This document shows, piece by piece, positions 5,723 to 46,043 of a stretch of 64,000 nucleotides of DNA. The stretch's first letter is position 1. Each line of letters starts with the position of its first letter. The notes under the pieces were generated by a model that saw only the letters and a list, made by a program, of their open reading frames with translations, was not told the DNA's origin and did no database searches. The translations under genes and the position numbers were made by a program. The stretch lies in assembly GCA_964447495.1 (NCBI GenBank), contig CAYUTF010000002.1, positions 37,288 to 101,287 on the forward strand, in the 5' to 3' direction. The DNA is from an uncultured archaeon (GTDB taxonomy: Archaea > Asgardarchaeota > Lokiarchaeia > Sigyniarchaeales > SOKP01).

Positions 5723-7962
5723 TTAAAGAATCTTTTTTAACTCTAAAATTAGATTTTTGGGATTGACTCTGTCAAATTGATAAATTTCTGCTTTTCCGAA
5801 ATCTTTAAAATTCTCCTTTATCTTATTAGCAGCAAAAGTATTTACACCTAATCCTTGAGTGGCATAACTCTTTTTTGGTTCTAACACTACAAGATGAACC
5901 CCTTTTTTAGATAAAGCCTTTGTTAATTCTTTTAATTCATTGATAATCACATTATAATCACTTTGTACTTGGGCAATTAAATCAGGATATTTTACGGAAA
6001 TGTTTGCACCACAATCAGAACAAATAAAAATTACGGGGATTATATTTCTATTCTTTAATTTTTCTGCATTAATTAATTTAAGAGATTTCTTTAATGCTGC
6101 AGCCATTGGTGTATATGATTTTCCTTCAATATTTTTTACTTTATTGGCAGCATTCTTGAAATAAACCGTTGGTTTTTGAAGAACAACTGCATCTTTTCCT
6201 CGAAAAATTATCAGACTTATTTTGTCCTTCTTTCGATAACCTTCTTTTTGTAAAGATAAAATTACATCTGTCATTTGCTTTATTACATAGTACATCGAAG
6301 CAGAGCTGTCTAATACAAAAAATAAAACCAATGGTGCACGATATTCGTATATTTTGTCCATTAAATCATACTTATTGAATTTAATGGGAAAATCAATATC
6401 AGTTTGATTATATATTGTATTTTTCAAATAATTTCTGATAGTTGCATCTAATGCGATACTTTTGGGGTTATTAATTGGAGTTCGATATGATACGTACCTT
6501 CCTTTTTGTGAGGAAGAAATTTTGATTCTTCTTCCGATTCCTCTTCCACCATAGTTAGAAACTTTCCTTTCTTTTCGAATATTATCCAAAATCGAAGTCA
6601 TTTTTTTTTCCATTTTATAGATTAATGGGAGAGCATCGAAATCATAATCTAAAAAATCAAACAACTCCTCATTAAAGGGAATATCCTTTACTTTCCATCC
6701 TCCAGCCGGTGAAGGACTTCTTTTTTTATTATCATGATATTTTGGTGCCGGTAATTTCTGTTCTTTAGTTTCTGGTACATCAACCTTTTTTGGATCTATT
6801 GATTGCCGTTTAAATTCTTTCTGAGGGGCATCGTCATATTTCAGAGGACCTTCTGTGTCTTTATTCGGTTTATAGGTATTAGTATCTTCATATGCTTTCT
6901 GTATTTTTCCATATACCTCAACAATTTTAGCTTTTATCTCTTCCGGAGTCATCTCATAGTGAAGGGATTGAATACGATGTTCAAAAACTAAATCCATAGC
7001 TACATTCAAATCATCCTCAGCAACCATCTTTCTCCCGTTAAAAGCCGCATGAGCACGGGCACATCTGATAAAGGTAATATCTGCTCTTTGAGAAAAAATA
7101 CCTAATTCATTAACAAGCCTTGATACAAACTCATACACAGTAGAAGGAATTTGAACTTCTTTCATAATTTCACGAGCATTTTTTATTTTTTTCCTTAGCA
7201 TTTCCTGTTCTTCTTCATATAATTTATGAAATTCTTTTGGATTATCATCAAATTCTATAACTCGTCTTGAAATTTCTGCTCGTAATTTCGGATCACGAGG
7301 TGCTTTGATTTTAACTTCCAAACCTAGTCTGTCAGCTATCTGTGGGCGGAGTTCCCCCTTTCCGAATCCTAATTCGCTGTGAATATAGGATCTTCGGGGT
7401 TCATACTCCCGACCAAGATAAATCGCGAGGGATGAGATACAGAGATTCCTTCTCGTTCTATTATGTTAACACCTGATGCCGCTGAATCCAATAAAACATC
7501 TACGATGTGATCTTGTAATAGATTTATCTCATCTACGTAAAGAATTCCTCTGTGAGCTTTGGCAAGCAATCCAGGATGAAGACTGCGTATACCTTCTGTA
7601 AGTACTTTATCAATAGACAAAGATCCGCAGACCATATCTTCCGTAACTCCTAAAGGTAAGTCAATTATGCGCATGCTACGCCTTGCCCTTTCCATTGTTC
7701 CATCCTTAAGTTTAACACGACATTCATCACATAATTCATCAATTTCTGCGTTTGGATCACACGAAAACGTACAATCTTTCACCACTTCTATTTCAGGCAT
7801 CATTTCTGCCAAGCTTCTAACAGCCGTAGATTTTCCTGTTCCTTGTTGCCCAGTGAGTAATACTCCAGCAATTTGAGGGTCTATAACATTAAGAATTAGA
7901 CCCATTTTCATTATGTCTTGACCGAGTATTGCTGTAAATGGGAAACTATTCCTTTTTACCAT
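5723..7962 (-). CDS. Mg/Co-chelatase ChlD/ChlI-like AAA+ ATPase with C-terminal vWA domain; two exons (7962-7392, 7359-5723), 735 aa when spliced
   Basis: Walker A GQQGTGKS, Walker B LYVDEINLL, and vWA MIDAS DSSAS..T..SD. The two track ORFs join in frame (571+1637=2208 nt) and give [18 protein letters not shown] when 7360-7391 is removed. Confidence 0.85.
7360..7391 (-). other. Putative 32-nt BHB-type mRNA intron (phase 1)
   Basis: AUCCUAUAUUCACAGCGAAUUAGGAUUCGGAA. Central helix CCGA/UCGG, bulges AG^A and AA^A, intron stems UCCU/AGGA and AUUC/GAAU. Contains an in-frame UAG. Confidence 0.8.
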
Positions 7963-8036
7963 AACTTGATGTTAAAAGTTTCATTTTTATTAAAAATTTC
8001 CCATTATAACAAAGTATTAGAGATATTATTACAAAG

Positions 8037-8432
8037 TTAGCAATTTGAATAATATTGCTTGAAGAATTTTATGATAGATAATGCTTCATAACCTTTTTTT
8101 GTTAATTCATACTTCCAAGAAATGTTTTTTTTATCAATTTTTATATAATATTCAGGGTAATCATTTCTATTAAAAAAACTGACTATCGTTCTCGGATTTT
8201 TAATATGTAGAGCATTGGCTAAGGCCTTGCTAGTTATTGATTCACCTGATTTGGACATTTTATAAATAGTTTTTAAATATTTAACAAAATTATCACTTAA
8301 TCTTTTAGGTAGTTTTAAGGGATCTTGAATTAAATTACTCTTATTTACAAATTTAAAATTTTTTTTCACCATATTTTTTTTTAAAGCTTCCCTTTGCTGA
8401 TTAAAAAGTTTTCCATTTAATAAGAGTTTCAT
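8037..8432 (-). CDS. Basic hypothetical protein with possible winged-helix C-terminus; may be a gene remnant
   Basis: ITSKALANALHIKNPRTIVSFF..WKYELTKKGYEAL is wHTH-like. The frame continues upstream to a TAA at 8478-8480. Confidence 0.45.
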   Translation of the reverse strand: MKLLLNGKLFNQQREALKKNMVKKNFKFVNKSNLIQDPLKLPKRLSDNFVKYLKTIYKMSKSGESITSKALANALHIKNPRTIVSFFNRNDYPEYYIKIDKKNISWKYELTKKGYEALSIIKFFKQYYSNC

Positions 8433-43661: not shown

Positions 43662-44234
43662 ATGGTTATAATGCCTAATTCAAACAATACAAAAATGAAT
43701 GATGGGGAATTACCACGCTCTGGATCGGTTATGTTTAATTTTCATTTTCAAAATGAAGAGGATAAGAAAAAGGTTTTAAAGCGATGGCAAAAAATAAATA
43801 AATATTTAATGATTCCATTGTATAGAGTGAAATTGCTACCGTTATTAGGATTTGGGAAAATTTTTTTGATTTTAAAGACAAAAGGAAGGAAAACGGGAAA
43901 AATAAGAAGAACTCCATTAGAATATAGACGATACAACGATACTATTACCATTTTTGCTTCAAGAGGGGAAGATACAATGTGGGTAAAAAATCTGCGTTCA
44001 CATCCAGAGGATGTGTCAGTAATGTATGGATTCCATCATTTTAAACCTCAAATAGAATTTATTGAAGATAAAAATCAAAAACTTACAATTATGAAATGGT
44101 ATGTAAAGAATTTTGGAAAAGCAGCAAAAATGCTTTTTGGATGGGATCCAAAAAATGATGATCCTGAAACAATTGATTTTACAAAATTAATAAATTTGAT
44201 ATCTATTATCTTACTTCATAAAATTAGTAAATGA
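43662..44234 (+). CDS. Deazaflavin (F420)-dependent nitroreductase-family oxidoreductase
   Basis: LILKTKGRKTGKIRRTPLEY..ASRG..WVKNLRSHP. Confidence 0.8.
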   Translation: MVIMPNSNNTKMNDGELPRSGSVMFNFHFQNEEDKKKVLKRWQKINKYLMIPLYRVKLLPLLGFGKIFLILKTKGRKTGKIRRTPLEYRRYNDTITIFASRGEDTMWVKNLRSHPEDVSVMYGFHHFKPQIEFIEDKNQKLTIMKWYVKNFGKAAKMLFGWDPKNDDPETIDFTKLINLISIILLHKISK

Positions 44235-44255
44235 ATTATTAAAGTAGTTGAAAAA

Positions 44256-46043
44256 TTATCCTTCTTTTTCAATATATTCTAAATTTTCTAAAAGAGATCT
44301 TAACTTTAAGGCATTTGCACCTCCAGATACCTGTATATTAACTATTGAATCCTCATCCGTACCAGTAACATTGGTTTCGATTAATACCTTTTCTGCTCGT
44401 ATCTGTTTTGTTTGCCGTTTACTTAATGCTTCTTTTAAGGGTTGATCCAAATTTGGAAATTCAGCAGCAATTTCTACCCAGACTTCTTTTTGATGAGAAT
44501 ATTTAAACGTAAAATCTGAGACTGTTTGTTTATAAAGTTCTTGATCGCACCAATTAATTAGATAGGCTCTATTAGGAAATTCAAGATCATCAATTAAATT
44601 ATTCCTAATTTCAGATAAACTTTTAATATCTCCATTCTTCACAGCGATATCTATTTTTCTAGCTAATTTTGAATACTTTTTTGCTTTTACTGATTTTATA
44701 AAAGAGATCAGATCAAATTTAACTATTAAATCGTTCATTGCATAATTATCGAGCATTTTTAAATCATTTACTTCTGGAGTTCCATCACGAAAACGAGTAG
44801 CTATTTCATAACAGGGCTTTCGATTAATATATCGTTTCTTAATTTCTTCTAAAACATGTTTAGTAAACTCATATTTATTACCCCAGAATGGTGCTTTCTC
44901 CAATTCTCGTGATGTATATTTCACGCGATGGGATATTATGTAAGGTGCAATTGTATTTACAATATTAATATCAACTATATTCAAGTTTAATAACCATGCT
45001 AAAGCTTTAGAATATCTAAGAAGATCTTTTGCTACTCTTACACTTAGAATGGAATCAATTTTATTGCAAACGCTTTGTTCGGTGTTGAAATGACATCCAG
45101 AACACAATCCAGAACTGGGTTTGATATTTTCAGAATTCCCCTTATCTACGCGAGCACATAAAGTATATTCTCTTATTATTGCATGAATATAATTATTCAC
45201 TTCTGTTTCGAATTTCATCTTGTTTACATGGTACCAAATTTCCATGAGACCATCAATATGTAAGATTTTAGGTACTTCAATCAATTCATCATATCCAGAA
45301 TATTTTTCGTCCTTTCCTGTAAGTATTAATGATAAATCATTACTTGTTGGCATTGAGATAGGAACTGATATTCCAAAACGATCTAGAAACGGTTGAGACA
45401 GTTTTCGAATAATTTGGAAATCAAATTAAATTTCGAATGTCCCAACATCTTGTGGATTTATAGTAGCATAAAGCGTGTATTTTTCTATAGTATTAATGGC
45501 ATCGTAATATTTTACTTTTCCTTCAGCTAATAAGGATAAAAGAATATCTTGGGCATATGGTGTCAATCTGTTGACCTCATCGATAATTTTCCAAAATCCA
45601 GTTACAAATTGCCTCCAAACGACTACTTCTTCCCCGTCTTTCATTAACTTTCCTAATTTTAAAGTCCCTGTAAGTTTTTCTTCTGTGAGTTGCGGTTAGC
45701 CGTTAAACGCTGAGAGCGATTAACTATGACCCCTTACAATGGAACTTTCAATTTGATCCAATGTCATACCAGTGAACATCCTACCTAATAGTTTAACTAA
45801 AGTAGTTTTACCCCCACCATGTCCTCCAACTAATAACATAGCAGAGTTTGGTACTAGCGCATTTAAAACACACATAGATAAAATTTCAGGCAATGTATTT
45901 GTTATAAGCTTCTTCTTATCCTCATTAAAATATTTAACTTCCAAATTTTTAGAATGAACAAATAATTGATTTGCTTGGATGAGGTTAATAGTGTTCCATA
46001 CTTTTTTTCTTAATGATTCTTCTTCTCCTAATATATTTGACAT
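44256..46043 (-). CDS. MoxR-like AAA+ ATPase; three exons (46043-45726, 45695-45432, 45401-44256), 575 aa when spliced
   Basis: Walker A GGHGGGKT and Walker B IIDEVNR. The three track ORFs share one frame. Removing two 30-nt inserts (318+264+1146=1728 nt) gives [11 protein letters not shown] and [19 protein letters not shown]. Confidence 0.85.
45402..45431 (-). other. Putative 30-nt BHB-type mRNA intron (phase 0)
   Basis: AUUUAAUUUGAUUUCCAAAUUAUUCGAAAA. Exon stem GGGACA/UGUCUC, helix UUCG/CGAA, bulges AA^A and AA^C, 7-bp intron stem. Contains an in-frame UAA. Confidence 0.82.
45696..45725 (-). other. Putative 30-nt BHB-type mRNA intron (phase 0)
   Basis: AGUUAAUCGCUCUCAGCGUUUAACGGCUAA. Helix GGUC/GGCU, bulges AU^A and AA^C, stems GUUAA/UUAAC and CGCU/AGCG. 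Contains two in-frame UAA. Confidence 0.82.

Follow-up and report, generated by a model that had tools for sequence, protein, structure and literature searches.

Candidate bulge-helix-bulge introns in two AAA+ ATPase genes of a Loki-type Asgard archaeon

Two interrupted ATPase genes and their inserts

We analyzed a stretch of 64,000 nucleotides (nt) of DNA from an uncultured archaeon (GenBank assembly GCA_964447495.1, contig CAYUTF010000002.1, positions 37,288 to 101,287 of the forward strand), hereafter the window, in which two genes for AAA+ ATPases are interrupted by three short inserts with the features of bulge-helix-bulge (BHB) introns. According to Pfam, gene A (7962..5723, minus strand) encodes a ChlI/BchI-like AAA+ ATPase fused to a VWA domain, and gene B (46043..44256, minus strand) encodes a MoxR-like AAA_5 ATPase. 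When about 55 open reading frames (ORFs) of the window were scanned with Pfam, AAA+ domains (Mg_chelatase, AAA_5 and AAA_3) were confined to these two genes, in agreement with an earlier note on this DNA, which had held that the only two AAA+ genes of the window are the interrupted ones. Exon 1 of gene A (7392..7962) ends in ...GSMNPEE with its last codon split as GA|G and corresponds to a fragment of 197 amino acids (P0148), while exon 2 (5723..7359) comprises the AAA lid, the linker and the VWA domain and runs through the stop codon. Gene B has three exons, namely exon 1 (45726..46043; amino acids 1-106, ending in ...SIVRGH), exon 2 (45432..45695; amino acids 107-194, PQLTEEK...GTFE), for which the ratio of non-synonymous to synonymous substitution rates (dN/dS) is 0.02-0.09, and exon 3 (44256..45401; amino acids 195-575, through the stop codon). 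The gene caller reports these genes as fragments of 197 amino acids (A) and of 107, 72 and 365 amino acids (B). To judge from the names given to orthologues, such split genes are annotated either as pseudogenes or as sets of two or three "hypothetical" fragments, a mis-annotation that the same note had predicted.

The inserts, termed intron A (7391..7360, 32 nt, ATCCTATATTCACAGCGAATTAGGATTCGGAA), intron B1 (45725..45696, 30 nt, AGTTAATCGCTCTCAGCGTTTAACGGCTAA) and intron B2 (45431..45402, 30 nt, ATTTAATTTGATTTCCAAATTATTCGAAAA), all lie on the minus strand, and their positions and lengths agree with those first proposed. Each has a stop codon in the upstream reading frame (...AAT TAG in A, AGT TAA in B1 and ATT TAA in B2, the latter two read as AGU UAA and AUU UAA in the RNA), and each contains a hairpin upon RNA folding, also as described before. 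Deleting the inserts yields uninterrupted ORFs of 735 amino acids (A) and 575 amino acids (B). The predicted spliced B protein aligns over 100% of its length, with 71-85% identity, to more than 120 intron-less Asgard MoxR ATPases of 575 amino acids, and its two junctions are gap-free inside the invariant blocks R104-G-H106|P107-Q-L-T-E-E-K and G191-T-F-E194|L195-S. The predicted junction of A reads as in the intron-less orthologues P0121 and P0133. Intron-less alleles thus match the spliced products residue for residue, without extra residues, and the proposal that cutting after the second nucleotide of each bulge restores both frame and conserved residues is borne out at all three sites. The expected exon-exon junction sequences are GGGGUCAU|CCGCAACU, CAUUCGAA|CUGUCUCA and CCCCGAAG|AGGGGGAA, and they are also given as the strings GTAAGGGGTCAT|CCGCAACTCACA, GGGACATTCGAA|CTGTCTCAACCG and GAACCCCGAAG|AGGGGGAACTCC.

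All insertion points fall in the most conserved motifs of these ATPases (Walker A, RGH/PQL, and the NP..FEL..DR sensor/arginine-finger region), and that of gene A lies at most two codons from the position homologous to B2. The earlier note had also stated that the inserts start with A and end in AA; this holds for the three inserts of the window, and fails as a general rule, given that orthologous B2 inserts start with U and end in AU or UU and that one B1 allele ends in AG. The B1 insert is 30 nt long, a multiple of three, and yet every B1 allele has an in-frame stop (UAA in codon 2, or UAA or UAG in the last intron codon), so that an unspliced mRNA would yield only a truncated product and never a protein with a 10-residue insertion.

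The same inserts recur in other assemblies. Four further assemblies, obtained from different samples, contain gene B and its two inserts at 100% identity, and in a strain that is 98.6% identical both inserts are retained, with one bulge nucleotide changed. Intron A, again of 32 nt, is present in orthologues from two unrelated Logan assemblies (L001 and L002). Searching with residues 1-106 of B retrieved dozens of fragments of 102-115 amino acids that end in RGHS* or RGHN*, several of them on contigs of up to 484 kilobases (kb), and a DNA pattern allowing an insert of 14-44 nt at the B1 site matched 13 metagenome contigs, in all of which the insert is exactly 30 nt. Overall, we collected 17 distinct orthologous B1 alleles, every one of 30 nt, and orthologous B2 alleles from five loci (L004, L021, L042, L045 and L054), with diverged inserts in dozens of contigs from JGI, NCBI, ENA and Logan. 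After removal of the inserts, 11 full-length B alleles are free of internal stops and frameshifts. Between intron-bearing B alleles, the proportion of synonymous differences (pS) is 0.65-0.9, i.e., saturated, and that of non-synonymous differences (pN) is 0.03-0.23, corresponding to dN/dS of 0.02-0.2 in exons 1, 2 and 3 alike. Sequence beyond a stop-bearing insert would hardly remain under such selection if no full-length protein were made.

RNA fold and related introns

The layout that we tested has a central helix, H, of 4 base pairs (bp), in which nucleotides -6 to -3 of exon 1 pair with intron nucleotides L-5 to L-2, where L is the last intron nucleotide. The first bulge comprises the last two exon nucleotides and intron nucleotide 1, the second comprises intron nucleotides L-1 and L and the first nucleotide of exon 2, and the hairpin of the intron, h', abuts H. 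All three inserts fit this layout. Of the (position, length) pairs drawn at random from the window, only 0.38% match a relaxed descriptor of it, and the chance that all three inserts would fit at their frame-restoring cuts is about 3e-7, allowing 2, 1 and 3 equivalent cut positions.

Intron A forms a UCCUA...UAGGA hairpin, its H pairs exon CCGA with intron UCGG, and its bulges are AG|A and AA|A. In its two variant alleles, five of five substitutions fall within the loop of 14 nt, whereas the 18 positions of stem and bulges are unchanged (p ~0.01, hypergeometric). For intron B1, H pairs exon GGUC with intron GGCU, next to a 9-bp hairpin and bulges AU|A and AA|C. Across the 17 B1 alleles (alignment A3), H is 98.5% paired, and six of the nine hairpin pairs have changed on both sides. 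The H pair 21-50 is UG in seven alleles, UA in six and CG in four, without a single mispair, and its exon side is a synonymous Gly codon position. The covariation score of B1 is 0.310, compared with a mean of 0.164 for shuffled alignments, none of which (0/500) reached 0.310, and with at most 0.127 for registers slid by 1-3 columns. With an outer helix that is not conserved, B1 is a relaxed HBh' motif; such relaxed classes (hBH and HBh') were reportedly described by Marck and Grosjean in 2003.

Intron B2 has an outer helix of 8 bp (UUGGGACA/UGUCUCAA), an H that pairs UUCG with CGAA, and a UAAUUUG/CAAAUUA hairpin. Pairing across six alleles (alignment A4) is 94% in the outer helix, 100% in H and 85% in the hairpin. 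Four pairs have changed on both sides, including a C-G to U-A swap in H by way of a synonymous TTC to TTT change, and the outer helix shows one U-A to C-G swap. The hairpin directly adjoins H in L042 and L045, giving a textbook strict hBHBh', and in the window two U.U mismatches lie between hairpin and H, beside the bulge. We therefore place B2 among the predicted hBHBh' motifs. A 6-bp H, as drawn by the minimum free energy (MFE) fold of the window's B2, was rejected, as L004 breaks its fifth pair (A-U to A.C) and keeps the four inner pairs by compensatory change. At both B1 and B2, compensatory changes indicate that structure has been kept over sequence. The label canonical, as used in the earlier note, is too strong for A, which is imperfect, and for B1, which is relaxed. 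Group I and group II introns and inteins, for which a ribozyme core of hundreds of nt or a protein-splicing domain in frame would be expected, were considered and rejected on the basis of the length of 30-32 nt, the in-frame stops and the absence of any RNA family at the inserts in Rfam.

Other insertion points are found in relatives. In the Promethearchaeota loci L040 (insert at 3244-3273) and L041 (JGI 3300033141/3300033150; 198-kb contig), the gene B orthologue is without B1 and B2 and carries a 30-nt insert, AAAGGTGGCTAACTCAGCGACTTGTTCCAA, after K79 of Walker A (GGGK|TT), with H formed by GGAA/UUCC and both bulges reading AA|A. If cut by the same rule, the K79 site gives the junction of intron-less orthologues, as do the sites of the window. 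A second, seemingly unrelated form of intron at the B2 site occurs in L023/L029 and L027 (30 nt) and in L043 (32 nt), where the cuts lie 1 nt further 3', in phase 1 of the L195 codon, and only this register restores the invariant L195; the shifted form reflects either intron sliding or an independent gain at nearly the same spot. The gene B family thus has at least four insertion points (K79, H106, E194 and E194+1 nt). Breaks after ..SLLA163 in L039 (P0259) and L049 (P0261) were rejected as introns. In the former, about 40 codons are missing and the frame is shifted, and in the latter homology is lost and the contig is chimeric or rearranged; both breaks appear to be real lesions or misassemblies. 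Among gene A orthologues, the fragments P0161, P0163 and P0172 all stop near amino acids 215-218 (..IKAPRDxKLRAE), which may be another break site or may be the ends of contigs.

The window also contains an intron-bearing tRNA-Ala(GGC) gene (63832..63931, plus strand; Rfam tRNA, 56 bits), which is missed by ARAGORN in its default run. Its intron (63874..63901, plus strand, 28 nt) lies at a non-canonical position after nucleotide 43 and has the layout of the mRNA inserts. Its H is formed by UGCG/CGUA, its bulges are AA|A and AG|A, and it contains a hairpin of its own. When the 28 nt are excised by the same cut rule, ARAGORN recognizes a perfect 72-nt tRNA-Ala. This intron provides a control from within the genome, and it implies that the organism has an active BHB splicing system to which exactly such a layout is acceptable. 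The tRNA-Ala intron (AGUUAA ... UAAC+CGUA+AG) also resembles B1 (AGUUAA..UUAAC GGCU AA) in sequence, and the two may have a common origin. The pattern AGTTAA...TTAAC itself is not in excess in the window (3 matches vs. 1.4 expected), and no tRNA genes for comparison turned up when 20 related loci were scanned with Rfam.

Proposed splicing by EndA and RtcB and its alternatives

Taken together, these observations lead us to infer that the three inserts are BHB introns in mRNAs, spliced by the tRNA-splicing enzymes EndA and RtcB, a reading to which we assign a probability of about 0.87. The same core claim of the earlier note, that protein-coding genes of an Asgard archaeon carry BHB-type introns, is supported by all of the comparative tests. 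The sequence comparisons show that the junctions are exact, that the structure is conserved, that every exon is under selection and that the introns recur in several lineages, and from this the splicing and its enzymes are inferred. mRNA splicing by tRNA-splicing enzymes would then probably extend beyond the classic case of cbf5.

In the mechanism that we propose, the end of the upstream exon would pair after transcription with intron nucleotides L-5 to L-2 and so build the central helix of 4 bp, the hairpin within the intron would serve as the inner helix, and at B2 exon-exon pairing would add an outer helix. The splice sites would thereby be placed in two 3-nt bulges or, at B1, in one bulge and an open loop. 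EndA, which in Asgard archaea is of the broad-specificity (alpha-beta)2 type, would cut each bulge behind its second nucleotide, and RtcB would join the exons into mRNAs for the full-length ChlI/VWA ATPase of 735 amino acids and the MoxR ATPase of 575 amino acids. Transcripts left unspliced would give truncated proteins only, owing to the in-frame stops of the introns. The Asgard-type EndA, an (alpha-beta)2 enzyme, cuts relaxed motifs, and this enzyme type has been linked to the splicing of cbf5 pre-mRNA (PMC5829648; PMC6379350; PMC2738675). In some Asgard genomes, more than 90% of tRNA genes contain introns, often at non-canonical positions (PMC11291895). The location of the introns in the most conserved motifs may have its reason in the stable pairing partner that invariant coding sequence would offer to helix H.

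Several points weigh against this interpretation. The splicing event itself is a prediction from sequence, and neither EndA nor RtcB is encoded among the roughly 55 ORFs of the window scanned with Pfam, the two enzymes being supplied from literature on other Asgard genomes. The rule of cutting after the second bulge nucleotide reportedly goes back to Marck and Grosjean in 2003 and to Xue and colleagues in 2006. Intron A has an imperfect motif, in which an additional U is left unpaired across from bulge 1 and the outer helix has 2 bp, and it shows no covariation in its two variant alleles. The outer helix of B1 is 44% paired and not conserved, leaving the 3' site outside a closed bulge, and the shifted form of B2 fits the canonical cut geometry only if H is allowed a mismatch, A.A or A.G. 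The BHB conformers lie above the predicted MFE by 3.0 (A), 3.0 (B1) and 6.3 (B2) kcal/mol. Furthermore, the relaxed descriptor is not predictive in this A+T-rich window, where it gives 26,780 and 25,931 (position, length) matches on the two strands, and a stricter descriptor gives 420 matches on the plus strand of the real window vs. about 660 on both strands of shuffled sequence. With matches so abundant even in shuffles, the motif alone cannot find further introns in such a window.

Decay of the genes, in which small insertions have broken copies that no longer give a full-length protein, would account for the fragments reported by gene callers (197 amino acids; 107+72+365 amino acids), and one gene of the window, that of a CitMHS permease, is indeed broken in an ordinary way by a frameshift. 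However, decaying copies would not be expected to keep inserts at the same sites while synonymous sites become saturated, with exons that remain open at dN/dS of 0.02-0.2, nor a fixed length of 30 nt in 17 distinct B1 alleles with compensatory pairing, and the 11 full-length alleles show no other lesion. We give decay a very small probability. That single frameshift, of homopolymer type, together with the metagenomic origin of the assembly, could also be taken to suggest that the inserts are errors of assembly or sequencing. The earlier note had named this as a way in which its reading could fail, and the inserts prove not to be artefacts, as four other assemblies of this species, made from different samples, contain them unchanged and diverged versions occur in dozens of contigs from JGI, NCBI, ENA and Logan; the chance of such an error is practically negligible.

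The inserts might alternatively stay in the mRNA and be dealt with by translational recoding, i.e., hopping as in gene 60 of phage T4, stop read-through or frameshifting. A stop near the start of the insert combined with a hairpin is indeed seen in bypassing elements, and AUUCGAAA is repeated at both ends of B2, 28 nt apart. That offset does not agree with the 30 nt to be skipped, however, and take-off and landing codons mismatch at B1 (CAU ... CCG) and at A. Read-through would place 10 extra residues within invariant motifs and would not rescue the 32-nt insert A. In addition, the conserved pairing between exon 1 and the 3' end of the intron and the 3-nt bulges constitute EndA geometry, for which hopping has no need, and the tRNA intron of the window shares the design. 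Recoding therefore appears hardly credible. Removal at the RNA level by some other nuclease and ligase would fit the deviation of A and B1 from a strict BHB. The geometry, by contrast, is exactly that of EndA, with a 4-bp helix, 3-nt bulges and, at both sites, a cut that follows the second nucleotide of the bulge, and we know of no other archaeal system that excises 30-nt segments precisely. We consider a different nuclease quite improbable, and BHB splicing by EndA and RtcB is the explanation that we retain.

Distribution, known systems and gene neighbourhood

Intron-bearing and intron-less alleles are interspersed in a neighbour-joining tree of B proteins, in which B1 occurs in nearly every clade beside intron-less sisters. 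Among the closest relatives, L003 (84% identity) has no intron, L004 (81%) has B2 only, and L042 has both. This pattern suggests that the introns are probably old and patchy, having been lost precisely and repeatedly, although they may alternatively have been gained laterally. Repeated loss has likewise been proposed for the cbf5 intron (PMC2738675).

That intron, in the cbf5 pre-mRNA of Crenarchaeota (Desulfurococcales/Sulfolobales), is the closest known parallel in several respects. It too is a short BHB-type intron that interrupts a protein-coding gene, often with a relaxed cleavage motif and in the size range of tRNA introns; its hosts have a hetero-oligomeric (alpha-beta)2 EndA, as do Asgard archaea; and its distribution is similarly patchy, which has been read as gain and loss (Yokobori 2009, PMC2738675). 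The candidates described here differ in their genes (MoxR and ChlI/VWA AAA+ ATPases) and lineage (Asgard/Promethearchaeota), in occurring up to two per gene in one genome and at no fewer than four points in one family, and in their uniform length of 30-32 nt. Splicing of cbf5 has been demonstrated by experiment, whereas the Asgard inserts are known from sequence. Work on the cbf5 intron is said to include further papers by Watanabe in 2002 and Yoshinari in 2006.

Non-canonical archaeal tRNA introns with relaxed hBH and HBh' motifs have in common with the Asgard mRNA inserts their motif, their predicted enzymes and a similar size, and they are abundant in Thermoproteales and Atabeya-/Freyarchaeia (PMC11291895). 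By contrast with tRNA introns, the exon strand of H in the mRNA inserts codes for protein and is constrained by its amino acids, folding can face competition from translation that is coupled to transcription, and every allele has an in-frame stop. Another small spliceosome-free mRNA intron is that of HAC1/XBP1 in eukaryotes (26 nt in XBP1), which is removed by Ire1 and tRNA ligase or RtcB. Here too the cuts lie in stem-loops, the exons are joined by tRNA ligase and splicing changes the protein product, but the nuclease is Ire1 rather than a tRNA-splicing endonuclease, and the process is a regulated stress switch.

In the literature that we searched, archaeal BHB introns in protein-coding genes concern a single gene, cbf5 of some Crenarchaeota, and no published report of BHB introns in Asgard mRNAs was found, within an incomplete coverage of the literature. 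The introns that a survey describes as abundant in Asgard archaea are those of tRNAs only (PMC11291895). The present case is therefore apparently an unreported extension of archaeal mRNA splicing and not a new mechanism. It is unusual in its several introns per gene, its at least four insertion points per family, its uniform 30-32 nt and its wide spread over lineages. At least two genes besides cbf5 appear to be subject to the mechanism, with several introns in each gene family and in many Asgard lineages; if this is true, mRNA splicing of the EndA/RtcB type would recur throughout the archaeal group that is closest to eukaryotes. Eukaryotic tRNA endonuclease and RtcB also process some mRNAs. 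As split genes are called as fragments or pseudogenes, Asgard gene counts and pseudogene rates are distorted, and the alleles collected here constitute a data set on the gain and loss of BHB introns, with covariation, presence/absence polymorphism and 1-nt "sliding". The introns have no direct bearing on the origin of spliceosomal introns, and such a bearing, like a regulatory role, is a matter of speculation.

A bolder and rather doubtful idea is that the inserts belong to a mobile family of mini-introns of about 30 nt built to one fixed plan (1 nt, then a hairpin, a strand of 4 nt that binds the exon, and 2 nt), which would move between tRNA genes and mRNAs in Asgard archaea, settle in invariant AAA+ motifs and act as a splicing-dependent switch. 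If this were so, unspliced mRNA would give a truncated fragment with Walker A only and spliced mRNA the full ATPase, an archaeal counterpart of the unconventional mRNA splicing of HAC1/XBP1 in the lineage closest to eukaryotes.

The window as a whole is rich in A+T (G+C 25-34%), and its best protein matches carry the labels Promethearchaeota, Lokiarchaeota, Hermod-, Hod- and Thorarchaeota. With its gene content likewise consistent, the source appears to be a Loki-type Asgard archaeon. Eukaryote-like genes typical of Asgard archaea include a Roadblock/LC7 gene at 3689-4423, and PAC2 is also present. Three JAB/MPN-domain genes are clustered within 9327-14389 (9327-10277, minus strand; 11480-12985, plus strand; 12986-14389, plus strand).

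An ORF-merging scan of the window, combined with the Pfam results for the same ORFs, flagged dozens of neighbouring pairs, and the only further split gene was that of the CitMHS permease. This gene, of the CitMHS/ArsB family (27868..26562, minus strand), is split into ORFs of 152 and 247 amino acids near 27412-27425. The break is a plain frameshift in a run of T, without insert or hairpin, and the gene thus appears to be an ordinary pseudogene or to carry a homopolymer error rather than an intron. An intact paralogue of the CitMHS/ArsB family is located at 31428-32726 on the plus strand.

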